Shown here piece after piece: positions 31,593-56,278 of a DNA stretch of 64,000 bases (within the stretch, counting starts at the first letter, position 1; every line of letters begins with the position of its first letter). Position numbers and translations under genes: made by a program. Under the pieces are notes generated by a model. It ran no database searches. It was not told the DNA's origin and saw nothing but the letters and a program-made list of their open reading frames with translations. The DNA is from Candidatus Doudnabacteria bacterium. Lineage in GTDB: Bacteria > Patescibacteriota > Doudnabacteria > UBA920. The stretch is from contig CAWINB010000001.1 of the NCBI GenBank assembly GCA_963837465.1, positions 139,915 through 203,914 on the forward strand, read 5' to 3'.

Positions 31593-31667
31593 GGCGCTAT
31601 CGTCTAACGGTTAGGACAAGTGGTTCTCATCCACTAAATCGGAGTTCGATTCTCCGTAGCGCTACCA
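31593..31667 (+). tRNA. tRNA-Glu (anticodon CTC), CCA encoded; 3' end overlapped by the recombinase gene
   Basis: Acceptor GGCGCTA/TAGCGCT, anticodon stem AGTGG/CCACT with loop TTCTCAT, T-arm CGGAG-TTCGATT-CTCCG. Confidence 0.8.
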
Positions 31668-33244: not shown

Positions 33245-33445
33245 ATGCAAAATACTATTGGAGACAACATTAAAAAGAGACGTCTAAAACTCAAACTATC
33301 TCAAGAAGAGTTTGCCCAAAAGTCCGGCGTTAAATATACAACTCTAACAAAAATTGAGAGCGGGGTCATTAAAACTCCTTCGGTTTTAATTGCTGCTAAA
33401 ATAGCAAAAGGCCTAGCAATTTCTATTGAGGAGTTAATAAAGTAA
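33245..33445 (+). CDS. XRE-family HTH transcriptional regulator
   Basis: 66 aa; canonical HTH_3 (LSQEEFAQKSGVKYTTLTKIE). Confidence 0.75.
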   Translation: MQNTIGDNIKKRRLKLKLSQEEFAQKSGVKYTTLTKIESGVIKTPSVLIAAKIAKGLAISIEELIK

Positions 33446-33589: not shown

Positions 33590-33709
33590 GGTTCCGAACC
33601 TGCTTTTAAAAAATCAAAAAATTGAATTTGTCCCACAAACACAATGGGCTGCCCTTAAGGCAGCCCTTGTGAACAAATCTAAATTGTCTGAAAGTTTGGT
33701 CTTGGTACC
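33590..33709. repeat. IR-a, copy 2 (inverted); gives rise to a 72-aa chimeric ORF at 33534–33752
   Basis: Near-identical inverted copy of 31663–31790; abuts IR-b at ggta/ccc. Confidence 0.8.
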
Positions 33710-34061
33710 CTTATTCGATATTTTACAAACCTATTATACCCAAAACAGCTGACCTTGGCTACCCTAAAACAGCTCTTGCTTAGGGCTGTTTTTTGATTTA
33801 AAATGGGGGTACAAACTAGTTGAACAGCTAGTTGAATCCGGGTTCAACTAGTAAAGTTCCTAAACACCCTAATTCCATTACCTTTTCTTAAACCACAAAC
33901 CTTGACTATCACCACGATTTCCACTGGCAGACAAAGAAAAATAATGGAAAGAAATACTAACTACTAAAATACTTAAAATACTACTATCTATATACTCTAA
34001 AAATATACTAAAATACCAAACTAAAAACTAACCAAAAACAGAAACAAAACAGGGTGCAAAA
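33706..34061. repeat. IR-b, copy A (~357 bp)
   Basis: Exact reverse complement of 45832–46189 over its full length as far as could be read. Confidence 0.85.
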
Positions 34062-34116
34062 TGGGGGTGGAAAAATTTTTGTGTCTTAACCGCCGCGATG
34101 AGCGGCGGGACAGGGG

Positions 34117-36909
34117 GTGGAAAAAACTAAGTTTGCTTTTATGTCAATCCCAAAACTCGCCTTGGCTTATCCGACAACTCACCCTGTAGCCCACAAAGTT
34201 CTATCCCCCGCAGCTAGCACCAAGGGTGCCGATTTTTTCACCGGTCCCCTGTATGCCAGTACCATTGGCAACCTTCCTGCGTGGGAGCGGACGACTTCAA
34301 ACATAGCGGGCTGCCTGTTCCTCGTAGTGATTGGCTACACTGTGCTCCACAAACTTGGCTTCTTCCCCAAACACGCCTTTGAAAAGATAAAGCTAAAAAG
34401 CAAGGACGTAGACAAATGGCTAGAGAACACTGTGTACTTTGAAATCACCATCCCCAAGAACTCCCAGGCCACGGCCTTTCAAATCCAGCAAAAGATATTA
34501 AAGGCCTTCCACTCAATATATATTGATCCGGTGGAAGGCGCACATAACTTTAGCAGCCTTTGGGAGTTTGTCTACTACTTCCAAAAGCTCTGGAGAAGAA
34601 GCAAAGTCAAACGCTCCCAAAAGACTTTCTTTAGTATGCAAATCTGGGCCCAGCACCCGTTCATTTCTTTTAGGCTCCAAGTCCACGAAGCTGACTTTAC
34701 CCGGGTGGAAAAAGCCATTTTTAACGCCTACCCAGCGGCAGAGATTACCATGTTAGACAAGTCCCAACCCCTTAAGGAAATTACCCAATTTTCCCAAGAC
34801 TTTTTAGCATATGGGGAGACAACTATAGAGGGGCCATTTTACCACAGACTGAAAACCTTTAAGGACGTATCTAGCGAGCCTGTAGATTCTATGGTCTCGG
34901 TCATGGAAGGCCTAAAGAAGGGCGAGTTTATGGTCTACAATGTCCTAATTTCTCCCTCTTCCCATTACTTTAACCAAATCCTCCATTACCTCATAGAAGA
35001 GCAGGAACAAATGGGAGCGGTAGATATGGGCAGACGCAGGTTGACTATCCAAAAGCGGGGCTCAGGCTCGGAATTGGCCAACGCTTTAAACTCGGCCATG
35101 ATTGAAAAGATGAAAGCTCCACTGTTCCAAACCATAATATCCTACTGGACGATAGCCGAAACCAAGAACGAGGCTGAGAATAAACTCCGCAGCATCCAAG
35201 GGGCTTTGACCGAGCTGAACCAAAAAAATATGAACACGCTTAAGTCTAAGCTGCTGTTTACCAAGCAGGTACAGAAACTTGAGCGTAAGGGCAAGCTGGC
35301 TGGCATAGTCAGCCAAAAGCCGGTGTTCAAGTTAAGACGTTTTCCGTTTTGGCCCTTTGCTAAGTTTAAAAACTATGGGCAAAAAATTTCTGACGGGGAG
35401 CTTTACTCCTTTTGGCATTTGCCTAATACCCAAGATGGGACGGTATCGTCCATTAACCTAACCAGATTTAAAAAGCTCCCGGCCAGTCAGCAAATCAGGC
35501 GCTACCCTAAGGACTTCTTTCTGTCCTTAGGCCATAGTAATTTCCGTATGCAGGATAACGCCCCCATTGGCATTGCCACTTGGGATGACTTAAAAAAGCA
35601 CGTTTACATCTTAGGGGGAACAGGAGCGGGGAAGTCCGAAACCTTGAAAACTATCTTAAATAGCCTGTTACAAAAACAAGGCCAGGAAAAGTGTGCCCTG
35701 CTCATCGTCGACCCCAAGAATGACTTTGCCACGGATTTGCTAACTATGATACCGGAAGACCGCAAAGCTGACGTAGTATATTTTAACCCCCAGAGACAAA
35801 AAGACCGCCCGTTGGCTTTTCCGTTCTTCTCCAAGTTTTCAGGACAAAAGACCGATGACGAAAAACTGGAGTTTTTAATCTCCATAATGAAAAGGTTTGT
35901 CCAGATAGATTCCGCTTTTTCCTGGGGGCCGGAGCTCGAAAATATCCTGCGCCAATTATTTGCTACGGCCTACATACTGCCCCAGCAGTCCCTGTCCGGC
36001 CTTGACCTGCTCCTGCACCAACCCGAGCAAATCGGCAGGATGATTCCCTTTTTACCCCCAAGACTTCAAAACTTCTGGTCTAACTCCATATTAAAGCGCA
36101 GCAGCAATGATTTGGCTAAGTATCTAGCCACTACCAACAACAAGCTGGGTAAGTTTTTGGATTACCCGGAGTTTATGAATATCGTGGACAGGCAAAACAC
36201 TAAAATTTCCTTTGAGGATATGATTAACCAAGGCAAGATATTTATCGCAAACCTTGGCTCCAGTAGCGAGCAGATGAAAAAATATTATTCTGTTTATCTC
36301 TCTGCCCACATTGCCGAGGCTATCTTTGGGCAGGCCAGACTTTCCAGCGAAAACAGAAAACCCACGGTCTTTGTGGTGGACGAGTTTCAAAGGGTGGCCA
36401 GTGATATCTTTGAAACCCTATTTTCCGAAGTTAGAGCTTTCAATACTGCTTTGGTAATCAGCAACCAATTCATGGGACAATTAGACCCAAGAATCCAAAA
36501 ATCCATAGAGTCCAACATTGCCACTAAAATCTTTATGCGTACCCAGTCGGTGGATGACGCAGAGATTGCCGAAAAGATTTTAGGCGGCAAGGCCTTAGTG
36601 GAGGACATTATCAACCTGCCCACTGGCACGGCTTACATTAAAACCTTAGTTTCGGGTGTGCCGCAGGACGCAATGTCGATAAACATTAAAAAGACCGAGC
36701 ACCACAGGGAAAACGCCAAAGAAACCGAGGATTATTTTATTCAGCAGACTATGGAAAAATACGGCACGCCGCAGGACGATATTATCTGGGAACGCACCGC
36801 CGTAAATTCCATATACTATTCAGGTGACAACGAGGAACAGTTTAGTAAAGCTATGAGTCAAAAAAAGACGACTGCCGAGACGGCAGGTGAAGCGGAGAAG
36901 CAGCCTTAA
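34117..36909 (+). CDS. Membrane-anchored P-loop ATPase, TraD/VirD4/TcpA-like (AAA-like/DUF87) conjugative coupling-type protein
   Basis: N-terminal TM helices; Walker A ILGGTGAGKSE; Walker B VFVVDEFQRV; 930 aa. Confidence 0.5.
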   Translation: MEKTKFAFMSIPKLALAYPTTHPVAHKVLSPAASTKGADFFTGPLYASTIGNLPAWERTTSNIAGCLFLVVIGYTVLHKLGFFPKHAFEKIKLKSKDVDKWLENTVYFEITIPKNSQATAFQIQQKILKAFHSIYIDPVEGAHNFSSLWEFVYYFQKLWRRSKVKRSQKTFFSMQIWAQHPFISFRLQVHEADFTRVEKAIFNAYPAAEITMLDKSQPLKEITQFSQDFLAYGETTIEGPFYHRLKTFKDVSSEPVDSMVSVMEGLKKGEFMVYNVLISPSSHYFNQILHYLIEEQEQMGAVDMGRRRLTIQKRGSGSELANALNSAMIEKMKAPLFQTIISYWTIAETKNEAENKLRSIQGALTELNQKNMNTLKSKLLFTKQVQKLERKGKLAGIVSQKPVFKLRRFPFWPFAKFKNYGQKISDGELYSFWHLPNTQDGTVSSINLTRFKKLPASQQIRRYPKDFFLSLGHSNFRMQDNAPIGIATWDDLKKHVYILGGTGAGKSETLKTILNSLLQKQGQEKCALLIVDPKNDFATDLLTMIPEDRKADVVYFNPQRQKDRPLAFPFFSKFSGQKTDDEKLEFLISIMKRFVQIDSAFSWGPELENILRQLFATAYILPQQSLSGLDLLLHQPEQIGRMIPFLPPRLQNFWSNSILKRSSNDLAKYLATTNNKLGKFLDYPEFMNIVDRQNTKISFEDMINQGKIFIANLGSSSEQMKKYYSVYLSAHIAEAIFGQARLSSENRKPTVFVVDEFQRVASDIFETLFSEVRAFNTALVISNQFMGQLDPRIQKSIESNIATKIFMRTQSVDDAEIAEKILGGKALVEDIINLPTGTAYIKTLVSGVPQDAMSINIKKTEHHRENAKETEDYFIQQTMEKYGTPQDDIIWERTAVNSIYYSGDNEEQFSKAMSQKKTTAETAGEAEKQP

Positions 36910-36955
36910 TTTTTTTCAAATTTAATTTTAAAATTTTTACTCATTTAAAACAAAT

Positions 36956-37837
36956 ATGGAACTTCAACTGACCCCGCGACAGGAACTTAAAGCCTACAAC
37001 ATCAGGCTCAACCAAGGCACCTTGGAAATTTTGACTTTGGTGTTTGAATTTAAAATTGCGGCAGCGTGGCACATTTCCAGGCTTCTGTCCGGGCGTGACC
37101 AAAGCAAGTATGTTTATCTCAAGCTCCGCCGGATGTGGCAGGCTGGCTACTTGGACAGCTTTAAACTATTTACCGGCTCTATGGCAGGAGTGCCTTTGTA
37201 CTACATGCTCTCAAAATCTGGCCTAAAAGTTTTACTTAAAGAAAACCTCTACAGTCCTAGCCAAATATCCAAGTACCCGTCTCCCCAGATTTTGTTTTCT
37301 TCCGGGCTATTTGAGCATGAAAAGGATGTGGTGGAACTGGCCAGCAAGGAAGCCAAAAATCAGACCAAGGATTTAAAGATTAAGTTTAAGGGCGAGATAG
37401 CCTCTCAAGGCACGGACTTTATGGACGACAAGACCATTGAAGCCTTAACCCCCGACTATACGGTGCTATATACTTATCCAAACCAAACACAAATCGTTTA
37501 CAGCGAACTGGAACGCACCCAAAAGGGCAAGCAGGCCATGCTCCGCAAGGTAGAGCGTTACAAAAATTTCCTGAAACCCGAGCAGCTTAAAAACAGAACT
37601 TTAAGGCTTATTTTTCAAACGCCAGAAATGGAAGCCAGCTTTTGGCTGAACATTTATACTAACCGACCCGGGCTTTTAAATACCATTAGGCTAGTAACCA
37701 CCAATACTTTACTGCTTAAAGACCATAACAAATTTGTGGAAGAAATTTATGCTACCCACAAAACAATTAAGCTATCCAAGCCTGTGAGGTTAGTAGTAGA
37801 CACTTCTAAAAGGATAAAGCTGTTTGAGTTTTTGTAA
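36956..37837 (+). CDS. Hypothetical protein, possibly replication-relaxation family (winged-helix N-terminus)
   Basis: Weak resemblance only; adjacent to the coupling-type ATPase. Confidence 0.3.
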   Translation: MELQLTPRQELKAYNIRLNQGTLEILTLVFEFKIAAAWHISRLLSGRDQSKYVYLKLRRMWQAGYLDSFKLFTGSMAGVPLYYMLSKSGLKVLLKENLYSPSQISKYPSPQILFSSGLFEHEKDVVELASKEAKNQTKDLKIKFKGEIASQGTDFMDDKTIEALTPDYTVLYTYPNQTQIVYSELERTQKGKQAMLRKVERYKNFLKPEQLKNRTLRLIFQTPEMEASFWLNIYTNRPGLLNTIRLVTTNTLLLKDHNKFVEEIYATHKTIKLSKPVRLVVDTSKRIKLFEFL

Positions 37838-37952
37838 AGACGTTAGGTTAAAAAATTTTAATCAGTTTTTTAACGCCCAAACTAATTGCTCTATTATCTT
37901 ATCGCCCATGAATTTAGCCACCCTTTTCAGAGTGGCTAAATCTTGTATAGGA

Positions 37953-38114
37953 TTAAACTTCAAAGTATTTTTTGATGTTTAAATTGCTGGGGCCGCAACC
38001 CGGACAGGTAACGGTGTCCAGGTCAATGACTTCTTCCCGGCTGGCGCTCCAGCAATTCTGGCAGTTAGGGCAAGTGATTAAATACTGAAAGTAAGCTGTT
38101 AGTGTTTTTAGCAT
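37953..38114 (-). CDS. Small zinc-ribbon protein (53 aa; CPNC...CPGC)
   Basis: Translated by hand from the minus strand; too short for the ORF track; two CxxC pairs. Confidence 0.35.
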   Translation of the reverse strand: MLKTLTAYFQYLITCPNCQNCWSASREEVIDLDTVTCPGCGPSNLNIKKYFEV

Positions 38115-38224
38115 TGTTTTAAAGTTAGTTGTTTAAGAAAGATTTTTGTTTTGGTATTAGTTTAAATTGTGTATCATTCTCCTTTCCTTTGGCTTAATTA
38201 TCATGGCCAAATAGCACTGGCCGA

Positions 38225-38320
38225 AAGTTTTAGGTGTCAACGGGATTGAAAATATTTTATGCCCCACGGGAAATAAATTATTTTCACCCTTGAGCATCCT
38301 AAAAACCGGACAGTATAATG
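38225..38320. repeat. Promoter-bearing ~96 bp repeat, copy 1 (ggtgtcaacggga...tataat)
   Basis: Shares ggtgtcaacggga, the tttatg stretch, gataaa and the -35/-10 layout with 39603–39698. Confidence 0.5.
38290..38319 (+). promoter_or_regulatory. Sigma70-like promoter (TTGAGC-18-TATAAT) inside repeat copy 1, upstream of the 229-aa ORF
   Basis: -35 and -10 hexamers read directly. Confidence 0.45.
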
Positions 38321-38379
38321 AGGGCAGATAAGGAAGCAAAGGAAAAGCTGTTCCCATTTAGTTTTATTTTTGATATATT

Positions 38380-39069
38380 TTGAACATGAATACATTACCA
38401 ACAATGCACACTGGCGGAGTAGAATTTTTTAGGTTTGCCGACCTGCAGTCGCTAGACGAGGCCAGGTATTTTGAATGCATGGATTCGCTAAGGCCGCTTT
38501 TTGAAAATCCTGATTTCAAAAATTCAACCCCGGGGTTTTACATAAACTACATTTCCAACCAGCCGGACGACGGCTTAATTTCCTTACGCCTAACTTACTA
38601 CACCATCGACCCTGCCAAAACCCAAGAGAATATAACAAAATTTGTTAGCAATAACAAAAACGGCCTCGCTCTGTTTGACTCCAAATGGACTGGTCGTCCC
38701 GAAGCAAATCAAATTTTGAGCATGCCCGAAAAGGAGGAGATGGATTTTAGAAATTTTTTAAACCGCAATACCCAAATCGCTTTAGAGGTATTAAAAAGTT
38801 TTGGGGTAAAACAATTTCGGGACTTAGTTTTAAACTATCGCCATAGGCAATTACTGCAAGGAGTACCACCCGCGGTCATCTTTAAGCAAGTCTTTGAACA
38901 GCATAGCGGCTATTACAGCCAGCTAAAAAAAGACTTCTTGGCAAGCGAATATTGGACTGGCTTGATCCGACTTTTCCATGGGCAAAATCCAGGGCTACAT
39001 TTTTTGGTAAATATGCTAGCCTTACCTGAAGCCCAATATTATTCAGCTTCTCCCGAAGCCATTTTATAA
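38380..39069 (+). CDS. Hypothetical protein (229 aa)
   Basis: No recognised domain. Confidence 0.4.
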   Translation: MNMNTLPTMHTGGVEFFRFADLQSLDEARYFECMDSLRPLFENPDFKNSTPGFYINYISNQPDDGLISLRLTYYTIDPAKTQENITKFVSNNKNGLALFDSKWTGRPEANQILSMPEKEEMDFRNFLNRNTQIALEVLKSFGVKQFRDLVLNYRHRQLLQGVPPAVIFKQVFEQHSGYYSQLKKDFLASEYWTGLIRLFHGQNPGLHFLVNMLALPEAQYYSASPEAIL

Positions 39070-39073
39070 TTTT

Positions 39074-39556
39074 CTACATCAGCCCTTTATCTCTAAAGCT
39101 GGCATAAAATTCAGCTGTTACAATCACGTGATCTAAAACTTCTATGCCAAGAAGTTTTCCGGCATCTTTCAGACGCTTGGTAACTGCGAGGTCTTCGTCA
39201 GATGGCTCCAGACTGCCGCTGGGATGGTTGTGAGCAACAATCACTGAGCAGCAGTTTTTTAATATAGCTGTCCTGAATGTTTCCCTTGGATGAATTAAGC
39301 TGGCGTTTAATGTGCCAATGCTTATTACTTCCTTACCTGTTATTTTGTTTTGAGTGTCAAGAAAAAAGACGCAAAAGTATTCTTTTTTAGCTTTTCTGAA
39401 ACTCTTGCATTTTTCAGCCACTTGAGCTGGGCTGTAAACACCTTCTGGCATAGGCTTAATTTGCAAGTTTTCGTTAACATAATTTTTGGCTTTTTCGTTA
39501 GCCTCGGATTCGTTCTCCGCGGTAAACTGATAATTGATGTTAATTTGGTATTCCAT
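39074..39556 (-). CDS. RadC-like JAB/MPN-domain protein
   Basis: JAMM motif HNHPSGSLEPSDED, conserved Ser and Asp; 160 aa. Confidence 0.85.
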   Translation of the reverse strand: MEYQININYQFTAENESEANEKAKNYVNENLQIKPMPEGVYSPAQVAEKCKSFRKAKKEYFCVFFLDTQNKITGKEVISIGTLNASLIHPRETFRTAILKNCCSVIVAHNHPSGSLEPSDEDLAVTKRLKDAGKLLGIEVLDHVIVTAEFYASFRDKGLM

Positions 39557-45229: not shown

Positions 45230-45315
45230 CGTAAAAAAATAAAAAGCCCGTCAAAAACGGAGCTTAATTAGAAATATTAAGTTTGTATAATCGCAAAACT
45301 GGCGAGCGTGTTTTA

Positions 45316-45337
45316 CTCTCTCTCTCTCTCTCTCTCT
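45316..45337. repeat. (CT)11 dinucleotide microsatellite in the 5' region of the giant surface-protein gene
   Basis: ctctctctctctctctctctct read directly, ~90 nt upstream of the start at 45229 (minus strand). Confidence 0.9.
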
Positions 45338-45364
45338 GCTAGCGCGTTTAAGATTTTGGACATT

Positions 45365-45667
45365 TTAGTTTTTTTCTGGTAATTTTTGTAAGGCTCGGGC
45401 TTTAATCTCTTCTAGGGTGTCGGCCGGTACTGACTTGCCGAGAATCCTTTCAGCCAGTTCCAGCATTTTATTTAAGCTTGGTTGACTTTTAAATTTATCC
45501 GCTATGATTTCCTGAGCACCTTCTTGGGCAGGAGTTTTATCCTCAACAGTTATCCCGGATAAGTGAAGCATTGAGACATAGGCGGATAAAAGTCTGGCAC
45601 ATTCTTCCAGATAAGCCGGGCTGTCTTCGGGCTTAGGGACCAATTCTAGTCTATTAGGATAATCCAT
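45365..45667 (-). CDS. Hypothetical protein (100 aa)
   Basis: No recognised domain. Confidence 0.4.
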   Translation of the reverse strand: MDYPNRLELVPKPEDSPAYLEECARLLSAYVSMLHLSGITVEDKTPAQEGAQEIIADKFKSQPSLNKMLELAERILGKSVPADTLEEIKARALQKLPEKN

Positions 45668-45831
45668 AATTACTACAGCTCTTTATACAAATATTATAGT
45701 ATATTTTACGATTTAAAGCCAGGATTGACTAAGTATTAGATTTGCTAGACATTTTGGGCCTTGTTTATTGGTCAGTTTTCCCGTATTTTTCTATGTTTTT
45801 TGCTTTTCTCCACCACCCCCACCCCCCCTGT

Positions 45832-46189
45832 TTTTGCACCCTGTTTTGTTTCTGTTTTTGGTTAGTTTTTAGTTTGGTATTTTAGTATATTTTTAGAGTA
45901 TATAGATAGTAGTATTTTAAGTATTTTAGTAGTTAGTATTTCTTTCCATTATTTTTCTTTGTCTGCCAGTGGAAATCGTGGTGATAGTCAAGGTTTGTGG
46001 TTTAAGAAAAGGTAATGGAATTAGGGTGTTTAGGAACTTTACTAGTTGAACCCGGATTCAACTAGCTGTTCAACTAGTTTGTACCCCCATTTTAAATCAA
46101 AAAACAGCCCTAAGCAAGAGCTGTTTTAGGGTAGCCAAGGTCAGCTGTTTTGGGTATAATAGGTTTGTAAAATATCGAATAAGGGTACC
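45832..46189. repeat. IR-b, copy B (inverted); overlaps the last 30 codons of the second recombinase
   Basis: Reverse complement of 33706–34061. Confidence 0.85.
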
Positions 46190-47703
46190 ATCGGCGATTT
46201 TAGAGCGGGTTGCAATCAGATCGAAGGGAGAACTCGGCGTGATCTCCAGGAGTTTTCCGTTCAGTACCCGGTTCGAGGTCAGAGAATCTACCATTTCGCG
46301 TTTTTCCGGCATGATGCCGACTTTGTACGCTGAATACGCGGTGTTCGCGCGTTCGAGAATTTCTAGCAGCTCATCGGCGACATTGCGGTTGCCGCTTTCC
46401 CAGCCAGAGAGTGTTTCCGACGTTTCCAGGCGCTCCGTGAGGAGCGCCGTTTTTCGTTGCTCGAACAGATCCTTTTCGACCAGCCGGTCGATGTAGGCAT
46501 CGGTGAGGCGGTTCAGCCGGTCGTCAATCTGGCCGAGCTTCAGCTTGAGGGCGGCGATGGCATCCTCGGTTTGCTTGTGACTGTCAGCTTTCAACCGGCG
46601 GAGTTCCTGCCAGCAGTATTGCTGCTCATCGGGAAGCAGCCGTAGTTGAAGGAGGGTTTCGAGAAATGAATTCTCGGCAACCTCTTCCCGGATCGCTGTT
46701 GTGGGACACTCGCGAGTTTGGCAGCGGTAGTAGACGAACCCCTTGTGAGTTTCGCCGATCAGGGTATGGCCGCAACCTTTGCAACTCAGCCTGCGGCGAA
46801 ACAGAAAATCATGGCGGTTGGTCCGCGTGTTGGTTTTTCCGTGGAGCACATCCTGGACGCGCTGAAAGAGCGCCTTGGAGATTAGAGGCTGGTGAGCTCC
46901 GAGGAAGGACTGACCGGAAACCTTGATGTGGATGAGGCCCATGTAGAAAGTATTGTTCAGCAATTTGGTCAGGCCGTTCATGGTGACCTGCTTGCCACTG
47001 CGCCCGCGCAAGCCGATGCGTTCGGCTTCGTGAAGTAGATCGTGAAAATTGGCCGTGCCGGTGGAATACTTTTCAAACAGATGGCGCACCAGGGGCGCAG
47101 TCTTGGGGTCTGGCTCCTTAGGTTTGCCGCTGCTGATGTTCCGATACCCCAGCGGGGCTGGCATGGGCAATATGCCTTGCTTGAGCCGTCCATAGAATCC
47201 CTTCTTGGTTTCTTCTTTGAGGTTGCGGATGAAATCGGATGCCACAACCGCTTGGATGTCCGCCGAGAGTCGTCCGCCGCGAGAATTGAGGTCCAGACCT
47301 TCGTTGGCGAAGTGGACTTCGACGCCACGGTCGATGATTTCGCCGAGGTCAGCCCAATCCTTGAGGTTGCGGGCGGAGCGGTCGATCTTGTGAATGACCA
47401 CACCGCGAACCGTGCCAGATCTCAGCCGCCTGATCATCTGGGTGAACACCGGGTGTCGGACGGCAAGAGGAAGCCATCACAGTCCCAGCAATCCGGCGTA
47501 GTCGCTCCGGGTGGCAACACGTACGGGGAAGTATCGAAAATAGACCGCTCCCTCTCATGCTTCGGGCCGTAAACGACCAAGTGCTCTGCGGTCTGATTTG
47601 TGCACTGGCCCCAGCCGCGTCCGCGGAGAATACGGAATGGCGGACGAATCAGGTCTCCATAATCCAGATCGAACAACAGCATGTCCTCCGCTCGGCACTT
47701 CAT
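46097..47703 (-). pseudogene. Second large serine recombinase with a disrupted N-terminal catalytic region
   Basis: The 450-aa ORF (46097–47449) starts inside the resolvase domain (GVVIHKIDRSARNL) and keeps the recombinase, zinc-ribbon (C..C...C...C) and coiled-coil parts. The upstream catalytic segment is scattered across three frames (...VRVATRSDYAGLLGL* ; ...DCDGFLLPSDTRCSPR*). Confidence 0.55.
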
Positions 47704-47754
47704 GCTTCGCTCTCAGATCACCGATCATATTGCTACGGACGAGTCGTCGCGTGG

Positions 47755-48471
47755 CTAAGGTTGCCACCGCCAGTTGGACCGGTATACATCAACGACGCCA
47801 AATTCTTTACCTGGGCTCCAACTACGTGACTCCCACATGAGCTGGCGAGCGCTACCGCCAAATTTACTACTGTCCAACATCACGTCGAATACTGCCTTGG
47901 TAATGTATGTAGAGAAGCCGACCTCCCGGATCGCGCTGAGCTTCGCCGCAATGTTCGGGGCTCGGCCTACCCACACCAGATCATTATTATTGCGAATTCC
48001 GCTCCGAACTACCATTATTTTGCTCGTGTCTATGCCAACGGTTTGACTCAATGGCAGGCCAGAGGGAAACGACCCCTTATAGAACGCATTAAATTCCGGG
48101 GTCAAAATTTGATTAAAAAAATAATTGATCTTGAGGCCCGCTTCGACCGCGTTCGTATTTTTCGCGCCCTCGATAAAGACGCCCATAACCCGGTCACCGT
48201 CAAAGCTTCGAATCTCACCCCCCAGCGCACGAATAATTCTCGTAGTGCCCATTAGATACGCCTTGAACACTTCAGCCGCGACCGACTGGTTAGCAATGGC
48301 CAGCCGAGTGGAGTCGTGCAGATCAGCATAAACGAAGGTAGCATCCAGGTTGACGCCCTCGTTGCCAAGGGCGAGGTCTTCGGTCTCAGGAACCACCGTC
48401 CCGTCCCGGCGTGTCCAGGCATCATGGACGACTTTGGCGGTTTCATTCTTAAGATCGTCGAGAAGAGTCAT
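47755..48471 (-). CDS. Class III nucleotidyl cyclase (CHD) domain protein, candidate Pycsar PycC-like cyclase
   Basis: Motifs ATFVYADLHDST and GDRVMGVF typical of the adenylyl/guanylyl cyclase catalytic domain; ~238 aa from the internal Met; one-nucleotide gap to the upstream TM gene. Confidence 0.55.
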   Translation of the reverse strand: MTLLDDLKNETAKVVHDAWTRRDGTVVPETEDLALGNEGVNLDATFVYADLHDSTRLAIANQSVAAEVFKAYLMGTTRIIRALGGEIRSFDGDRVMGVFIEGAKNTNAVEAGLKINYFFNQILTPEFNAFYKGSFPSGLPLSQTVGIDTSKIMVVRSGIRNNNDLVWVGRAPNIAAKLSAIREVGFSTYITKAVFDVMLDSSKFGGSARQLMWESRSWSPGKEFGVVDVYRSNWRWQP

Positions 48472-48472
48472 A

Positions 48473-48988
48473 TTAGTGAAATAGGGTTGAACGGGTTGGA
48501 GCTGTATACGCCGCAAATAACGCGAGCGCGGCAAGCCATGGAAGGAGAGCCAGCGCGAGAAACGTGAAGGCCGCTTTTAGCGCATCAAACTTTGCTGTCA
48601 GTATTTCCGAATTCCGCCACACCTGTGCCAAGAGATCGTTAACGTGCCCGTCTTCATTCTGCTGCTTGAATTGTTCGATAAAGTGGTGCTCCGTACGACC
48701 TGCTATCTGTCGAAAATAAACCAAGGACGAATTGCCTCCCTTAAGACTGGGGAATGCGCCACGATACAAAAACACAATGCTCACGCCCAAGAGAACCACA
48801 CAGATACCGGCGGACGTTGACATCGGCCAGGTTAACGCTTTGAGTGGTGGTGCGTCGGTAGCCAACACGGCTAACATTCCCGTATCTACCGCGAGTATCA
48901 CAGAAAGCTTTGAATCTACACGCGGGAAAAAGCTCAATACTCGATCGAGTTGATCTTTGCTCGCAGCGTATATAGTTTCAGTCTTCAT
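48473..48988 (-). CDS. Small transmembrane protein (2 to 3 TM), candidate cyclic-nucleotide-activated effector
   Basis: 171 aa; hydrophobic helices at ~30–75 and 140–165; translationally coupled to the cyclase. Confidence 0.45.
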   Translation of the reverse strand: MKTETIYAASKDQLDRVLSFFPRVDSKLSVILAVDTGMLAVLATDAPPLKALTWPMSTSAGICVVLLGVSIVFLYRGAFPSLKGGNSSLVYFRQIAGRTEHHFIEQFKQQNEDGHVNDLLAQVWRNSEILTAKFDALKAAFTFLALALLPWLAALALFAAYTAPTRSTLFH

Positions 48989-49153
48989 ATAGGCTTGGGG
49001 CGCAGCCTAGCAAATGCGTCTGCGCAGTAAATATGTTAAATTGCGCTCAGACAAAAGATATTATTAGAATCATAACTCTCGAATTCCGAGGCGTCAAGAA
49101 CTCAAGGCCGCATATTTGAAAGGCGAACTCGCTCGAAGTCCCGCTGGGTTCAC

Positions 49154-49477
49154 TCATGTCCGAGGAATAAACACGCCGAAAATCTTTACGATGTCCGAAC
49201 GTTCAAGCGGCTTGTCGGTCAAGTTGAACACATGCATGATGGTCGACCAGTGACACGCGAGGTTGTCCGCGAGCAACTGGGCTTGAGTGGCGAATGGCTC
49301 AAAGGGCACGCTGCGACGACTCAGAGCCGAGACACGCGTTTCAGCCAAGTGCCACTGGCCATATAGATCCTCGGGAGGACGCACGAGGACCAGATTCCAG
49401 CCTTCCCGATCCCGCGCGTTTTCGTTGATCTCAATATAACCACCATGTGCGACATGACGCCGCTCCAAAGTTGTCAT
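49154..49477 (-). CDS. Hypothetical protein (107 aa), operon gene 3
   Basis: Start overlaps the stop of the upstream gene. Confidence 0.4.
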   Translation of the reverse strand: MTTLERRHVAHGGYIEINENARDREGWNLVLVRPPEDLYGQWHLAETRVSALSRRSVPFEPFATQAQLLADNLACHWSTIMHVFNLTDKPLERSDIVKIFGVFIPRT

Positions 49478-49893
49478 CCTGCCAGGAACAATAGGATTTG
49501 CAAACAGCTCGCCACGATGAAAGAACCGGACACGTAAGGCCCGCCCACCAAAGCGGTATTTTTTCCGTCCGCAGCGGTAGCTGTGACGATCTTGGTTTCC
49601 GCGAGATGCCTATTGATCTCCTCGACGATCTCGTCAACCATCGCAATCAACTCCTCTTCTTTGTATCGATTCCTAGCAGCCGTGTCCCTTTCGGACTTCG
49701 CAATCCGCTGCTGCTCAAGTGTCGCCGCTTCGACCGCGTCGTGGTGTTGGCGCATCCTGGCGGCTAGCGCACCGATGGCGGATTCCCTTGGGGCCGGAGC
49801 AGTCTCCAGGCATCCAGAACCTCCCGCGCTGTTTGGTGACGGGCACGCGGATCCTTGGTCAAGAGCCTCTTGCCCAACTTTCCGGTTAAACAT
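49474..49893 (-). CDS. Hypothetical protein (139 aa), operon gene 2
   Basis: Overlaps the downstream gene by 4 nt (translational coupling). Confidence 0.4.
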   Translation of the reverse strand: MFNRKVGQEALDQGSACPSPNSAGGSGCLETAPAPRESAIGALAARMRQHHDAVEAATLEQQRIAKSERDTAARNRYKEEELIAMVDEIVEEINRHLAETKIVTATAADGKNTALVGGPYVSGSFIVASCLQILLFLAG

Positions 49894-49941
49894 TCACCAA
49901 TCATAAGATTTTTCTAAAAGATAGCAGCACAAGGCCCGACG

Positions 49942-51015
49942 TCAATCCCCCCTTTCGGCGCCGCCATCGAAACAAACACTGCCGTTCGAAGCCAGGGTAT
50001 CTCTAAAGTATGTTGCCAGATCGGCATTCCACACGAAGAAAGCCTGTGCTATAAGGCTGAAGGCGTCGCGATCAATCGGCTCGTCGATCCTGAAGATTTT
50101 CATCCGTACTCCGGTTTTCCCGAGTTTTCTGAGATGATCTTTCTGCCGTTCTTCAAATTGCTCGCCGTTGTAAATCCTCAGCGCCCCGTCGAAATGCGTA
50201 ATGGATTGGCTGCCCGGATCGTAAATCGCGTGAAGGTAACGGGCACCGGCGAATGGGATACGATCCCTGGGTGGAAGCTCCTCACAGACGAAATGGATTC
50301 CATCGCCACGTGGGCTCCAGCAGAATTCGGTAACTTGACTCCTGTCCCACGGCTTATCGGCCCGCATTTGCCCGAAGTGCTGTTCTCTCAATCGACCTAT
50401 GTCGTTCCAGGTCAGCGGCGCGGCATACACAATCATCTTGTACATGGTCTGCGGGAAAGAATCGCACGGACCCCAAAGAAATGGGTCGAGCCGGACGCTG
50501 ACGGAATTGGCGACACCCTGCTCATAAAACGACCGTAGTAGCCAATAAGTTGAATTGGGAGATTCGGTAGTTGTACAGACCGTGAAGTCGAACCCGTTGG
50601 CCTCAAGGGTTGAATTGTTGTAACTAAACTCCGCCAGTCTGACCATACCTTCACCATCCACGGTGACGCCGCGCAGACAATCGGCGGTGTAAGGTAGTGT
50701 CTGCGCGGAAGAGAAGGTTTCCGCTAGGATCTCCAATCGGCGGCGCGCCGCTTCATTGGTGAGGAGCGCATCTGCGACCCAGATCCGTGCAAGGCGTTCA
50801 TTCTTTCCGTGAAGTGCAAGGAAGGTCGGGTCCTGGAAGGCGGCCTCGACCGCCTTCGTCGGCAAACTCGAAAGTAACCGCGACAGGTCGGGATACAGGG
50901 ACCACGTCGACTCATTTGAGTTTTTAAGCAATTTGTCGAACGGGGCGAGCGGATCGGAAGCAAAGTCGCGCACGAGATCTTCCGGAAGCTTCACCCGTAT
51001 CCCATTGAACTGCAT
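49942..51015 (-). CDS. Hypothetical protein (357 aa), first gene of an unknown three-gene operon
   Basis: High GC; no recognised motif. Confidence 0.4.
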   Translation of the reverse strand: MQFNGIRVKLPEDLVRDFASDPLAPFDKLLKNSNESTWSLYPDLSRLLSSLPTKAVEAAFQDPTFLALHGKNERLARIWVADALLTNEAARRRLEILAETFSSAQTLPYTADCLRGVTVDGEGMVRLAEFSYNNSTLEANGFDFTVCTTTESPNSTYWLLRSFYEQGVANSVSVRLDPFLWGPCDSFPQTMYKMIVYAAPLTWNDIGRLREQHFGQMRADKPWDRSQVTEFCWSPRGDGIHFVCEELPPRDRIPFAGARYLHAIYDPGSQSITHFDGALRIYNGEQFEERQKDHLRKLGKTGVRMKIFRIDEPIDRDAFSLIAQAFFVWNADLATYFRDTLASNGSVCFDGGAERGD

Positions 51016-51199
51016 AGTCTTCTTGCCTTTCTAGTTCCAGCATATCCTGGACGCGTCCCGCTGTCCAGAAGAGCTCTAAACGGCAGTTCAACATCGCGTT
51101 TGTCGATACCTCCATCGAACACGCCCGTTCATTTGACAAGACTTCTAGGGCGGACCATTATATAAGTAGAATTAGAATATCTATTAACGTCAGCGTTTT

Positions 51200-51649
51200 A
51201 TGGTCGCTCTCGAATTTACATTAGGACACGTACACCTCAAGGTGAAAGACGTTGAAAGGGCAACTGCCTTCTATACAAATGTTTTCGGGCTTAAGGTTGC
51301 CGAGCGGGTCGGCAACTATGTATTCCTCTCGTTTGGCCAGAGGTATCATCACGACTTGGCCATACACGAAGTTCCGGCGGACGCGGCAGTGCCCGGCCTT
51401 AAAGATGTAGGCCTTTATCATTTTGCCCTTGAAGTTGCCGACATTCGGCAACTCGCATTGTTGTACCGCAAGCTAAAGCAATTAAATGTGGCCGTCAAGC
51501 CGGTTGATCACGGAATCAGCAAGGTGATATATTTCAGCGACCCCGACGGCAATGGCATAGAGGTCTACGTTGACACACGAAGTGAAACCGGACAGCAGGA
51601 ATGGCAAGGAAAATCCACGCCGCTAAACCTTGAGGATGTCATGGTGTGA
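51200..51649 (+). CDS. VOC (glyoxalase / bleomycin-resistance / dioxygenase) superfamily protein
   Basis: HVHLKVKDVERATAFYTNVFGL...HHDLA...HFALEV pattern. Confidence 0.7.
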   Translation: MVALEFTLGHVHLKVKDVERATAFYTNVFGLKVAERVGNYVFLSFGQRYHHDLAIHEVPADAAVPGLKDVGLYHFALEVADIRQLALLYRKLKQLNVAVKPVDHGISKVIYFSDPDGNGIEVYVDTRSETGQQEWQGKSTPLNLEDVMV

Positions 51650-52428
51650 GAAGAAAAACTGTAATAAACCTCGCCACCGGCCTTGGCTTTTTTGGGTTTT
51701 CTACCCTATCTGGCTGGGCGCTTCACTCGCCCGTCGCGGCACTCGTAACGGGTTTCGGCATTGTAATCATCCGTCTTCTAGTAGACATCAGGCTGAATCT
51801 ACATACAAAGATTCCGGTGGAGGTATCTTTCCTCAATAGCTACACTAAGCTGCGAGAGAGCCAATGTGAACTCTTTCGGGAGGCGGCAGCCGTAAAGCTA
51901 CGGTCTGTGACTGCCTACTTCGACAGTTTGGCAGGTGGCCATTTGCCGGTTGACAATCAGAATGAGGTCTTCGATTTACTTGAGCTTTTGTTCTGTGACA
52001 TTGATTTTGTAAGACAAATTCGTACGACTAGCTTTGGGGAAATTGAAGAGTGGGGAAATTGGTGGGGCAAGCGATATTTGGGTATCCACAAAGAGGCGAA
52101 GAAGAGAGGAGTGAAGGTACATCGCGTTTTCATCCTTCAGTCCGACGACGACGTTCAGGCGGGAGCCGATATCATGCGCGCCAACGCTGCTGAGGGCGTG
52201 GCGGTAAAGTATGTATCGCGGCGTGTGATTTCTCTGGGAGATTTCAATACCGGCAACAACTGTATGCTGTTCTATGACCGAAACGGGGTTCCAGTATATG
52301 CTCTCACGGCCGTGCACGACGAAAAAGGCGGATTTTTGGCAGCGATAATCTATAACGACGCAGCCCACATCAAACCCGTAGTTGATGCATACAGCCATAT
52401 CGATGCCCTTGCCGTCGAGTTTAGATAA
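51646..52428 (+). CDS. Hypothetical membrane protein (260 aa); start overlaps the VOC gene stop
   Basis: N-terminal TM segments; unknown C-terminal domain. Confidence 0.4.
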   Translation: MRRKTVINLATGLGFFGFSTLSGWALHSPVAALVTGFGIVIIRLLVDIRLNLHTKIPVEVSFLNSYTKLRESQCELFREAAAVKLRSVTAYFDSLAGGHLPVDNQNEVFDLLELLFCDIDFVRQIRTTSFGEIEEWGNWWGKRYLGIHKEAKKRGVKVHRVFILQSDDDVQAGADIMRANAAEGVAVKYVSRRVISLGDFNTGNNCMLFYDRNGVPVYALTAVHDEKGGFLAAIIYNDAAHIKPVVDAYSHIDALAVEFR

Positions 52429-52479
52429 CGGTGGACTTGGGACAAGCTTGTCCACCGTCTCGCAGAAAAAATGGACTTC

Positions 52480-52700
52480 CCGCCAAGTTTTCCCTCCTAT
52501 ACAAACCTTTAAGTTCTGCTATTCTATCTTTGCCACGATCAAAGCCGCCGAGCGGGGTGCTGGCCGCGCGGCAGGCTTGATCGATGAGCAAACTCATGCC
52601 GCAATCTTTTCTTTCGACTCTTGTTTGCGTTGGAGCAAATCCATTATCGCGGGCAGAAGGCGCTTCCACGTTCGATGTATGTCCCGTCTCGGGCTACCAA
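52480..52700. repeat. R-family ~230 bp repeat, copy 1 (core ctattctayctttgccacgatcaaagc...gcttccacgttcgatgtatgtcccgtctcgggctacca)
   Basis: Copies at ~55195–55430, ~59085–59345 and a truncated one at ~60105–60235. Confidence 0.75.
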
Positions 52701-52874
52701 AATGATTCAGCAGCGTAAAGCTGCTGTTTTTATTTGCTAAAACGATTCAAGGAAAACGAACCATGCGGAGGGAGAAATTCCGGTCCGCATATTTAAAAGG
52801 CAAAATCGTTCGATTCCCCAATGGGGTCGAAATTAATTCCAGTAAGTAAGAACACAATACGGGCGACATCTTAG

Positions 52875-54290
52875 TTACTTAGCGACCGCCATCAGATTGC
52901 TTGGCGGGGGGAGTGTGGAGGGTGACGTAGAACCTTTTACCATCGCATCTGTGATAATCAAAGAACTACATGTAGACCCTGGGCACGTTAGGAGCGACGC
53001 AGGCACCGGAAACGCATCGGTAAATACGTAGCCCAGTGAAGTAAATGCCGTAGCAGTAGCGAAACCCGCAATTTGACCGTCCGACACGACATAATAGGTG
53101 CTATTGGTTGCGCATCCGTGCCCGCTCGAATCGAGAGTGCAAAGAATCGAACCTTCGCGATATGGCAACGTATAGTTCCGGAACGTTGGATCTTCCAGCA
53201 ATGTGGCCGTCGACTGTTGTTGTATATCACTCCAGCGAAATCCCACGCCGTCGAATATCAATTGTGACGTGATACCTCGCTTATAATGCTGATCGGTTAC
53301 CTCGTAGATGGTACCGCCATCATTCACCAAGAACGCTGCCGGCGGCGGCCCTAACAGACTTCCTTGGGGAAGCGCCTGAATCTCTTGAAGCCCCACACTT
53401 ATGACTTTGCCGAAATCAAAGCCGTACGCGTAGAACACGGCGGGCGACGGTATCCCGCGAAGTTTACCGGCCTGTATGAGGTACACCGTGCCATTGTAAG
53501 AAACCAGCGAACCGTCGGGGTGCCAGATTACGTTTGGCGCGGCCGTTCTCGCCGGTGCCCAAAGAGTGGTGCTTCGGACTGTCCTCGGGTCCAGATACCT
53601 CCCTTGCCACCCATAGGGGTCAACCGGAACTCCGTTATAGCGTACCTCGAAGTGGAGGTGCGGGCAGGGAGAGTCCGTGGTACAGACTCCAACGCTACCG
53701 CTAACCCCGATCATATCTCCTGCGCTCACTGCCCGTCCTTCGACGGTGTTTGGATCAACCCAACTGGAGAGGTGCAAATAATATGTTTTATAGCAATTGC
53801 CATGGTCAATGTAAAGTGCATGGCAGCACTTTTCACCGGTATCCACGTGCAGTGTGCCGCTGGCGGCGGCATAGACTGGTATTTCGCCACTAGGGTCCTG
53901 ATCCGTAGTTTTGTAATCGATTCCGGGGTGCCCATCATAGTTGAGAAATGTTGGCGTGCCCGCGCCGATATACTGTCCGTTTATCACGAAAGGGATTCCA
54001 GGCATGTTCTGAAAGGAGAAGAACGTTTGGCCGTTGATCGTCGTAGCATACTCGGGATTTAGATTGGCCAACTCGCCGGTGAATCCAATCACCACGTTGT
54101 CAGATGTGTAGGAGTTGGTCATGGAGTGATCCATGACCGAGTTGATGCTCGCGGAATAGGCGGTTCTGTTTGGCAAGGGGAACTTTGACAAGTAGAACGC
54201 TGAAGAGGGTTGCGAGGGGCAGGTAGACTGAGCAAGGAGCAGTACGTCTGCGTGCAGTGCGCAAATCGCGAAACAAAGCCAAAAACGCAT
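52875..54290 (-). CDS. Secreted M23 (LytM) family metallopeptidase
   Basis: Signal peptide (MRFWLCFAICALHA); HPGIDY...D and HLHFEV zinc-binding motifs. Confidence 0.8.
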   Translation of the reverse strand: MRFWLCFAICALHADVLLLAQSTCPSQPSSAFYLSKFPLPNRTAYSASINSVMDHSMTNSYTSDNVVIGFTGELANLNPEYATTINGQTFFSFQNMPGIPFVINGQYIGAGTPTFLNYDGHPGIDYKTTDQDPSGEIPVYAAASGTLHVDTGEKCCHALYIDHGNCYKTYYLHLSSWVDPNTVEGRAVSAGDMIGVSGSVGVCTTDSPCPHLHFEVRYNGVPVDPYGWQGRYLDPRTVRSTTLWAPARTAAPNVIWHPDGSLVSYNGTVYLIQAGKLRGIPSPAVFYAYGFDFGKVISVGLQEIQALPQGSLLGPPPAAFLVNDGGTIYEVTDQHYKRGITSQLIFDGVGFRWSDIQQQSTATLLEDPTFRNYTLPYREGSILCTLDSSGHGCATNSTYYVVSDGQIAGFATATAFTSLGYVFTDAFPVPASLLTCPGSTCSSLIITDAMVKGSTSPSTLPPPSNLMAVAK

Positions 54291-54408
54291 GGTAACTCCA
54301 GTTGCCACCAGCGTACTACAGGCCTCGCCGAAAATCAAAGGGGCTCCCCGCTCCGCCCTACCCATCAGACCAGCAAGCTTGACCGGCTCTCCGACGTTTG
54401 TAATAATG

Positions 54409-55070
54409 CAATGGCTTCAATAATTAATCTGATTGTTCTAATGAAGAGGTACTTGTTTATCTTTGTAATGAGCTGTCTTTCTGCGGGTTGCAGTCGGGTA
54501 AACGTGGCGACAAATGAACCGGCGGTTCAGCCCGACGTTCGACTGAACCCGCCCCGGAACGCTTCTAAATCGCCGGTCAGCTTGATGGGTGTAACAGCCA
54601 ATGGCACCACTACGCAGGACTCTCAACCCGGCGATTGGACTACATACACGGACACTGCTTATGGCTTTAGCCTGAACATTCCAGCCGGATACGTTTATGC
54701 CACGTCGACAGCGGAGCGCGGATGGTCGCCTGTGCTAATTGTCTACGACCCAGAGAATTTACCCATAGCCAGTGAGCCAGCTGTTACTGTTTATGTTTCA
54801 ACAATCACTAGCAAGGAGCAGGAATCGCCTTCTTATCTGCTTCAGCAAGAAGGCATACCCCCGGCAGCGGCTACAGTCACCCCAACAAGGTTTGCGGGAT
54901 GCCTAGCCACCCAAATTATTATCGAGAACACGGACGGAGGATACCCGGTTGAGGACCAGATGTTCGTAGCCCACGACGGTCTTGAATATTCAATCAGATA
55001 TACCGCGCGCGACAATACGACATTCGCAAGGATTGCTTCGTCCTTTGTATTCCTCGCAACTGGTTGTTGA
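54409..55070 (+). CDS. Putative lipoprotein (lipobox LSAGC)
   Basis: Signal peptide plus lipobox; the 3' 240 nt is duplicated at 59751–59987. Confidence 0.5.
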
Positions 55071-55282
55071 CTCTTAGCTTGATACTCCGCTTCACCTTCA
55101 AAGGATGATGGCGTTTTCGTGGGGTTGAGTCCGATTAGCCCAGAGCGAAAAGAATTGGCAAGAGCTCAAGATATCCACCGAGCGGGTCAATTCTTGGAAG
55201 TTGAGCCAATGTTTCCCTCCTTTGCAAGCGTCTGAGTTCTTGCTATTCTACTTTTGCCACGATCAAAGCAGCCGCGCAGGGT
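54835..55282. repeat. ~448 bp direct repeat, copy D1 (3' end of the lipoprotein gene plus downstream R repeat)
   Basis: Near-identical to 59751–60199 apart from a diverged ~70 nt patch. Confidence 0.8.
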
Positions 55283-55430
55283 GCTGGCCGCACGGCATGC
55301 TTGATCGAGGAGAACCATTTAGGCCGCAATCTTTTCTGTAGACTCTTGTTTGCGTTGGAGCAAGCTCAGCATCCTGGGCAGAAGACGCTTCCACGTTCGA
55401 TGTATGTCCCGTCTCGGGCTACCAGGAATC
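55195..55430. repeat. R-family repeat, copy 2
   Basis: See copy 1. Confidence 0.7.
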
Positions 55431-55650
55431 CCATTCAACTTTTCCCTCCCTAAAAGAAGAATTCACCCGCAGAAATGCGGGTTTTTCATTGGCGCAGATT
55501 CAGCCCTTGGCCAGAATTGTCCACAGGCCATTGGGGAATCGAACTGACAGGCGGTTTCCCGCATGGGAAAGCGTAGTAGTGGTGCAGATTTGACACCCAC
55601 ACAAAAGGTGTGTAAACTACAAATATAAGATCATTAACCTAGAAACTTCC

Positions 55651-56273: not shown

Positions 56274-56278
56274 TATCT

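Follow-up and report, generated by a model that had tools for sequence, protein, structure and literature searches.

A perfect (CT)11 microsatellite upstream of a giant surface-protein gene in Candidatus Doudnabacteria: a plausible contingency-locus candidate on a putative mobile element

Introduction

Can a simple sequence repeat (SSR) in front of a giant surface-protein gene act as a contingency locus in a bacterium of the Candidate Phyla Radiation (CPR; Patescibacteria)? This question is raised by a 64,000-nt stretch of the Candidatus Doudnabacteria bacterium assembly GCA_963837465.1 (contig CAWINB010000001.1, positions 139,915 to 203,914 of the forward strand), referred to throughout as the window, in which a (CT)11 dinucleotide tract lies between an open reading frame (ORF) of 100 amino acids (aa) and the gene for a giant, 1797-aa protein. 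The original prediction placed this tract in the promoter or 5′-untranslated region (5′-UTR) of an adhesin-like gene, about 90 nt upstream of its start codon, and proposed slipped-strand phase variation through promoter spacing or translation, which would be unusual for a CPR-like genome.

Stochastic phase variation is known from small-genome, host-adapted genera such as Neisseria, Haemophilus, Helicobacter, Campylobacter and Mycoplasma. Members of the CPR are believed to be host-attached and dependent on large surface proteins, the variation and regulation of which are barely known, and if a switch of this type were true for the locus described here, stochastic phase variation would extend to a huge, mostly uncultured radiation. 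We find that the observation is real and that the locus is a plausible contingency-locus candidate of a known kind, in which the tract might tune transcription of the giant gene in a graded fashion.

Results

An isolated, perfect microsatellite precedes the giant gene

The sequence read and two repeat scans (Tandem Repeats Finder and our own) all agree on a perfect 22-nt (CT)11 at positions 45316-45337 of the forward strand, just as had been described. The tract reads (AG)11 on the reverse strand, which carries both neighbouring genes, and on the forward strand it is bounded by GTGTTTTA and GCTAGCGCG (context ...GCGTGTTTTA(CT)11GCTAGCGCG...). It lies in the 135-nt gap between the two genes, which makes up 0.2% of the window, beginning 27 nt past the TAA stop of the 100-aa ORF (45367-45365) and ending 86 nt ahead of the giant-gene ATG at 45229, so the distance of about 90 nt was right. 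As for the assignment to a promoter or 5′-UTR, the tract is intergenic, on the strand of the giant gene and directly upstream of it, and the boundaries of either region are predicted ones.

Under a first-order Markov model, a 22-nt CT/AG tract is expected 3e-10 times in the window, where the runner-up dinucleotide run has 4.5 units and no further candidate SSR was found. Dinucleotide runs reach at most 4 units in the related CPR loci and elements that we fetched (17 loci, 249 kb in total, of which about 100 kb is non-redundant), and no upstream SSR was found at homologous giant genes or in related elements, with no more than 4 dinucleotide units anywhere in L001-L018. The tract is far beyond chance. 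Its 11 perfect units also lie above the threshold of at least 6 at which dinucleotide candidates for phase variation are called (PMC6321876). We regard it as a genuine microsatellite produced by replication slippage. Perfect dinucleotide tracts of such length frequently gain and lose units by slipped-strand mispairing, and from this general knowledge the present one is probably unstable in length.

The gene downstream has the features expected of a surface protein, in keeping with its earlier description as adhesin-like. The N terminus of its product, MTKFLKNKLTLLAFFVVFIGCGFSLAGKASA, is a typical signal peptide that begins at residue 1, and it is followed by β-sandwich domains of the Big_7, fn3 and Pur_ac_phosph_N types and by a C-terminal PG_binding_1 domain; because of this signal peptide, these β-sandwich domains and PG_binding_1, the protein is plausibly a secreted, wall-associated, peptidoglycan-binding surface protein. 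Its nearest homologues belong to Candidatus Moranbacteria and other Parcubacteria/Patescibacteria and share 34-42% identity with about 25% of its length, and there is no ortholog among the 120 best of 170 homologues. The description of the genome as CPR-like is borne out by the names under which the giant protein and the neighbouring element genes (see below) have their best homologues, among them Candidatus Moranbacteria, Parcubacteria, Magasanikbacteria and Patescibacteria; the source contig measures 699,532 bp.

The 100-aa protein encoded upstream had no match in Pfam and PHROG searches. Its AlphaFold2 model is all-helical and mediocre (pLDDT 69), and a Foldseek search of this fold against the PDB returned nothing at E < 1. 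The sole relative found, P0002, is 84% identical and is encoded on an 868-kb contig, from which none of the 120 best giant-protein homologues comes.

Promoter-like elements lie beside the tract, not around it

The proposed promoter-spacing role turns on the relation of the tract to −35 and −10 elements. A permissive scan predicts two weak hexamer pairs in the gap, both downstream of the tract (Table 1): pair A, which would put the tract 19 nt upstream of the −35 element, at about −56 to −77, and pair B, which would put it 10 nt upstream, at about −47 to −68. A third pair from the same scan, CTTACA-19-TAAAAT, lies inside the end of the 100-aa gene, so that the candidate pairs are located either wholly downstream or wholly upstream of the tract. 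A stricter σ70 scan finds no promoter in the 135-nt gap. The −10 region of pair B is similar to the TATAATATTTGTA box that precedes the 100-aa gene; the two places share a repeat family, D7 (TAGAAATATTA at 45269-45279 versus TACAAATATTA at 45686-45696).

The stricter scan does report a promoter-like site upstream of the 100-aa gene (Table 1), which is the likely source of transcripts that would read through the tract. No terminator was found between the stop of the 100-aa ORF and the tract. Between the tract and the giant gene there is a weak hairpin with a T-run (Table 1); terminator-like hairpins of this type occur at chance frequency (1 found versus 1.1 expected in shuffles), and this one is more likely an AU-rich leader than a terminator. 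Since transcription coming from the 100-aa gene meets no convincing terminator, an intercistronic operon RNA probably also contains the tract, as (AG)n.

The giant gene has no Shine-Dalgarno (SD)-like motif, which is present in 8 of the 48 genes in the window. At many of these 48 gene starts, a TATAAT-like box precedes the ATG at a distance of about 6-25 nt, and the combination of −10 boxes close to start codons with rare SD motifs implies very short or absent leaders and SD-independent initiation.

The tract is flanked by an imperfect direct repeat (8/10 identities, pattern ACRCGCTMGC), formed by ACGCGCTAGC on its upstream side and ACACGCTCGC on its downstream side. Exact matches to the pattern in the 64 kb are limited to these two flanks, from which the pattern was defined post hoc; when one mismatch is allowed, the count equals the chance expectation.

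Three mechanisms known for repeats of this type are excluded

The classical form of promoter spacing, with the tract as a −35/−10 spacer, did not survive: no hexamers stand on either side such that a pair would bracket it, and 22 nt exceeds any workable spacer. The spacer mechanism is excluded because of these two features. A frameshift or N-terminal extension of the giant ORF was rejected as well, since for repeat numbers from n = 7 to n = 15 a stop precedes the ATG in every frame. A riboswitch or structured leader was likewise rejected. Folding of the leader gave no structure above shuffled controls (minimum free energy −24.8 versus a shuffled mean of −26.3 kcal/mol, z = +0.44), and the leader has no match in Rfam at E ≤ 1.

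Searches for further copies of the locus

The flank pattern GAGCGTGTTTTA-N{0,30}-GCTAGCGCGTTTAA had no match in metagenome, genome and viral contigs, and a locus search guided by an alignment of the 100-aa protein found nothing in genome, viral and metagenome contigs. In blastn, no plasmid or phage matched the region, and exact-protein look-ups returned no record for the giant protein, the 100-aa protein or the 84% relative of the latter. Sequencing run ERR10755945 contains this strain: one of its Logan contigs (L006) is 100% identical to window 35088-39162, ending 6 kb short of the tract. Another Logan contig of the same run (L018) comes from a related genome and is without the 100-aa gene.

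The giant gene and the tract as putative cargo of a mobile element

A tRNA-site integrase, a coupling protein and a relaxase-type protein, the combination by which we recognise a mobile element, are all present in the window (Table 1). A related element, L007 (GCA_003151625.1), has about 77% DNA identity to it, the same backbone and no dinucleotide SSR. Because L007 shares this backbone but has neither the giant gene nor the 100-aa gene nor the tract, the giant gene with its tract appears to be variable cargo of a mobilizable or conjugative CPR element integrated at tRNA-Glu.

The element is structured by two inverted repeats. The longer one, of 368 nt and 99% identical, encloses 11.75 kb with the transfer genes and the giant gene, and since the element's regulatory region is repeated, at 99% identity, ahead of the 100-aa/giant pair, the pair is likely an expressed unit. 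The shorter one, of 113 nt and 98% identical (31663-31775 and 33595-33707), encloses the recombinase/helix-turn-helix (HTH) module, and the 3′ end of the recombinase gene forms the arm that abuts tRNA-Glu. A TGGTA core is common to three junctions, at which the similarity switches partner (X-core-tRNA, X-core-Y, Z-core-Y). As judged from their sequences, the junctions would fit a tandem integration at tRNA-Glu together with an internal, inverted attP-like copy, and possibly a module that inverts itself. L007 has an inverted repeat of 148 nt at its recombinase end (97% identical; 3930-4077 and 6632-6779), with a TGGAG core that matches the adjacent tRNA-like 3′ end. This same type of inverted repeat in L007 indicates a feature of the element family, not an assembly error.

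The transfer module is found also in L007 (7211-10882) and in a more distant element, L008 (4557-17640), which has a full Gram-positive-type type IV secretion system (T4SS) including a T4SS pilin, PrgI-like and VirB4/TraC-like proteins and an M23 hydrolase. The coupling ATPase, the PF13814 protein and the large serine recombinase together mark a widespread CPR element family. In a 2025 survey, most T4SS clusters of Patescibacteria were without a recognisable relaxase, and no PrgB-like adhesin was found (PMC12102498). Candidates for these two components are the PF13814 protein, as the relaxase, and the giant wall-binding protein described here, as the adhesin.

Within both arms of the 368-nt repeat there are iteron-like repeats (TACTAAAATAC-type units with 11- and 24-bp periods, at 33952-34013 and 45883-45941), which recur at the homologous place in L007 and likely form a binding array of the operator or origin type. 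A G-rich stretch, G7TG5 on the reverse strand (45815-45830), closes the regulatory region on its inner side, ahead of the 100-aa/giant pair, and L007 has a G9 run (7137-7145) at the homologous place, upstream of its coupling-ATPase gene; such a G-rich homopolymer would be a possible second slippage-prone site of the element family. The second serine recombinase, beyond the right arm, is missing roughly 50 residues from the start of its catalytic domain (the Pfam alignment begins at profile position 52) and is probably inactive. At this gene the G+C content rises from 0.40-0.46 to 0.52-0.55, forming an island at about 46000-58000, and the jump suggests an older, decayed element or an island of different origin adjoining the first element.

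Table 1. Coordinates of the tract, its surroundings and the putative mobile element in the window
Feature	Position	Strand	Basis or remark
tRNA-Glu(CUC)	31593..31667	+	element abuts 3′ end; core TACCA/TGGTA in common
Large serine recombinase, 508 aa	31627..33153	−	Pfam domain match
XRE-type HTH protein	33245..33445	+	
368-nt inverted repeat, left arm	33703..34070		upstream of the coupling-ATPase/relaxase operon
Transfer module (coupling ATPase and replication-relaxation protein)	34117..37837	+	
FtsK/TraG-like coupling ATPase, 930 aa	34117..36909	+	
Replication-relaxation family protein (PF13814), 293 aa	36956..37837	+	
229-aa ORF	between the replication-relaxation gene and RadC		
RadC	39074..39556	−	
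Giant secreted surface-protein gene, 1797 aa	39836..45229	−	ORF, signal peptide, domains
135-nt spacer, 100-aa ORF to giant gene	45230..45364	−	holds the tract
Weak hairpin (6 pairs, 3 of them G-C) and T-run	45233..45261	−	terminator-like; ends 4 nt before the giant-gene ATG
Promoter-like pair A: TTGCGA (45296-45291), 18-nt spacer, TCTAAT (45272-45267)	45267..45296	−	permissive scan, 9/12 matches; prediction
Promoter-like pair B: TCGCCA (45305-45300), 18-nt spacer, CTTAAT (45281-45276)	45276..45305	−	permissive scan, 8/12 matches; prediction
ACACGCTCGC, downstream copy of the imperfect direct repeat	45302..45311	−	4 nt past the tract
Hypothetical 16-codon upstream ORF, MSKILNALAERERERE and stop	45313..45363	−	reads through the tract
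(CT)11 microsatellite	45316..45337	− as (AG)11	sequence read, repeat scans
ACGCGCTAGC, upstream copy of the imperfect direct repeat	45338..45347	−	directly abuts the tract
100-aa all-helical ORF	45365..45667	−	directly upstream of the giant gene
Promoter-like site TAGTCA-17-TAAAAT, then TATAAT	45703..45731	−	stricter scan; upstream of the 100-aa gene
368-nt inverted repeat, right arm	45823..46190		upstream of the 100-aa/giant pair; recombinase-gene terminator and iteron-like regulatory region
Second serine recombinase, N-terminally truncated	46097..47449	−	

Discussion

A variable spacer upstream of a weak promoter

Our preferred reading, which we hold tentatively, is that the tract tunes transcription of the giant gene in a graded fashion, as a variable spacer upstream of a weak internal promoter. 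Through slipped-strand mispairing, the 11-unit tract would often become longer or shorter by units of 2 bp and would form a spacer of variable length located 10-19 nt from the −35 element (about −47 to −77 relative to the start site). With every unit added or removed, the upstream DNA would shift, and rotate by about 69 degrees, relative to RNA polymerase; the DNA so moved would include the end of the 100-aa gene, which is rich in A-tracts, and one half of the direct repeat, ACGCGCTAGC. The outcome would be a graded tuning of giant-gene expression rather than an on/off switch, to which an effect of (AG)n within the intercistronic RNA may possibly be added. Several points argue for such a tuning: the tract is perfect and rare, a surface-protein gene starts 86 nt downstream, the gap has its σ70-like pairs shortly after the tract, and a good promoter-like site precedes the 100-aa gene, with no terminator from the stop of that gene to the tract.

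By analogy, the locus is compatible with the family of repeats distal to the promoter, of which nadA and vlhA are the closest analogues. In vlhA (pMGA) of Mycoplasma gallisepticum, a variable (GAA)n with conserved flanks is located about 40 nt upstream of the transcription start, and expression was reported only at exactly 12 units of this trinucleotide, in a multigene family (PMC6258824). The likeness extends to a repeat that is purine-rich on the coding strand, lies upstream of the (here predicted) core promoter and outside both the −35/−10 spacer and the ORF, and belongs to a surface gene of a small-genome, host-dependent bacterium; unlike vlhA, the locus here is a single one with a dinucleotide unit, a predicted promoter and a marginal flanking repeat. 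In Neisseria meningitidis nadA, a (TAAA)n lies upstream of the −35 element, between operators for NadR and with an IHF site, and the repeat number alters the spacing of distal elements, giving a graded rather than a strict on/off expression (PMC2791445). Common to nadA and the present locus are an SSR upstream of the (here predicted) core promoter and an adhesin-type gene, whereas the repeat of nadA is a tetranucleotide with a defined repressor, NadR, and the one here is a dinucleotide with no known regulator or operator. The direct repeat around the tract recalls the conserved flanks of vlhA (PMC6258824) and the NadR operators of nadA (PMC2791445).

The defining features of the promoter-spacer (hifA/hifB, porA and opc), intragenic-frameshift and hmw-type structured 5′-UTR families were not found at the locus. 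The hifA/hifB genes of Haemophilus influenzae (van Ham et al. 1993, as listed in PMC11868660) are similar in having a dinucleotide repeat upstream of a surface-structure gene. Their (TA)n reportedly lies in the spacer of overlapping promoters, but the tract here does not lie between −35 and −10 hexamers. The (CT)n of Helicobacter pylori oipA-type genes is located in the region coding for the signal peptide and acts by frameshift, with 5-9 units being sufficient (PMC6327388). There, too, a CT/AG unit is linked to a surface or outer-membrane protein gene; the present tract differs in being 86 nt upstream of the ATG, where no repeat number extends the ORF. In H. influenzae hmw1A/hmw2A, an (ATCTTTC)n is transcribed in the 5′-UTR and modulates expression, forming a long hairpin with a G-rich partner that is processed by RNase III (PMC12721329). 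Like these repeats, the tract stands between a (putative) promoter and the start codon of a very large adhesin-type gene; unlike them, it is in a leader without structure above shuffles and without a pyrimidine-rich partner for (AG)n.

Alternative readings of the tract

The main rival, which we consider a real possibility though short of an even chance, is that the tract is a neutral by-product, that is, a chance slippage expansion in a non-essential spacer of recent cargo, maybe at a module junction and perhaps polymorphic without effect. This would agree with a single tract without companions, which no recognisable promoter element overlaps and to which no RNA structure or known RNA motif is attached. 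Furthermore, the 100-aa gene has its 84% relative elsewhere and the giant gene is without an ortholog among the 120 best of 170 homologues, and these differing relatives would place the tract at the boundary of modules with different histories; the related element L007, with neither the tract nor the two genes, points the same way. However, neither the rest of the 64 kb nor about 100 kb of related DNA contains another long perfect SSR, so expansions by slippage evidently seldom arise or do not last, and an uninterrupted, perfect 11-unit tract must be either very young or maintained. Its position right before a giant surface-protein gene is also the classical one for a contingency repeat. The tract or its exact length could, on the other hand, be absent from the organism altogether. 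Dinucleotide unit counts can be miscalled, especially in a long-read consensus, and the sole independent contig, L006, stops at 39162, short of the locus; yet the 22 nt are surrounded by unique sequence, with an intact ORF on either side in one 699-kb contig, are shorter than typical assembly k-mers, and have flanks of ordinary sequence, and both flanking proteins were deposited from the same contig. An artefact is hence hardly credible.

Two further readings would give the tract a function of another kind. Ribosomes might restart after the TAA of the 100-aa ORF on an upstream ORF (uORF) and read (AG)n as (Glu-Arg)n, with n setting the frame and thereby one of three phases of a translational switch. 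The hypothetical uORF (Table 1) has its ATG, at 45363, 1 nt past the 100-aa stop (TAAaATG), and the computed distance from its stop to the giant-gene ATG is 83 nt for n = 11, 34 nt for n = 12 and 21 nt for n = 10 and 13. A stop near the ATG would favour re-initiation at the giant gene, which like most genes here is without an SD motif, and a dinucleotide unit shifts the reading frame as the CT repeats of H. pylori oipA do (PMC6327388). Against this stand our estimate that an ATG-started open frame over a stop-free (AG)n arises by chance in about 1 in 3-4 cases, the lack of an SD motif or other initiation signal at the uORF, and a genome that seems to initiate on short AU-rich leaders without coupling; we therefore judge the uORF switch quite unlikely. 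It would be the boldest version of a contingency locus in CPR bacteria, a repeat-containing uORF coupled to the preceding gene with a stop that moves with n modulo 3, outside the classical SSR switches. Very unlikely in our view is a structural role, in which the 22-bp polypurine/polypyrimidine tract would form a triplex (H-DNA) or bind a protein, so that the structure and not the length would act. (AG)n/(CT)n is a perfect mirror repeat, directly from the sequence, and for Mycoplasma a regulatory role has been suggested for triplexes formed by (AG)n repeats (PMC4516964), but nothing specific for H-DNA was found, and other promoters of the window have no similar tracts.

Several observations weigh against graded tuning by a variable spacer. 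No second copy of the locus was found in the collections searched, so no variation in repeat number was observed. The absence of the tract, the 100-aa gene and the giant gene from L007 means that there is no conservation arguing for selection. The promoter calls in the gap are weak (8-9/12 matches, 18-nt spacers), and the stricter scan reports none; the flanking direct repeat, defined post hoc and marginally unlikely, is a lead and not evidence. Moreover, the tract is a lone long SSR in 64 kb, with no sign of a contingency-locus strategy in the genome, and in the literature searched we found no relevant paper that combines CPR or Patescibacteria with slipped-strand mispairing, contingency loci or phase variation. 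Of the proposed phase variation there remain the length, purity, position and outlier status of the tract, and the spacer mechanism falls away.

The most far-reaching interpretation is that the (AG)n tract, carried on a self-transmissible or mobilizable element, stochastically varies a giant surface protein that may serve as the missing mating or host-attachment adhesin of conjugation-type systems in CPR bacteria, and would constitute the first simple-sequence contingency locus in CPR/Patescibacteria. We consider this unlikely as a whole. If verified, it would be the first such case for these bacteria, by a mechanism that is itself of an already known kind, and a switch travelling on a mobile element could spread together with its adhesin. 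If the tract is invariant, it is a mere curiosity.

Additional observations in the window and in related loci

Imperfect arrays with a 7-bp period (3.9-4.7 copies) occur in intergenic positions beside gene starts and tRNA genes, at 1884-1911, 13650-13680, 14068-14097, 16263-16295, 30993-31060, 31231-31309 and 60660-60686. Their units are variants of TTRAYNG or TTGACNN, as in TTAATCG TCAATCG TTAATTG TTAATCG, and the arrays, none of which is near the (CT)11, look like a genome-wide regulatory or binding-site array. Adjoining the tRNA-Trp/Thr/Glu cluster is an IS630-type transposase gene (29433-30480, reverse strand), split into an HTH ORF of 165 aa and a DDE_3 ORF of 157 aa, which is probably a frameshifted or decayed insertion sequence. 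In a Moranbacteria locus, represented by four independent assemblies (L002-L005), a conserved (CAATTTC)4.6 heptanucleotide repeat (for example L002 25559-25590) lies near the end of the gene for a 2252-aa giant protein, with an identical copy number in 4/4 assemblies. The G+C-rich island next to the element contains a complete Pycsar system of overlapping genes (47755-48988, reverse strand), with a PycC cyclase (E = 1.8e-82) and a two-transmembrane (2TM) PycTM effector (E = 5e-54).

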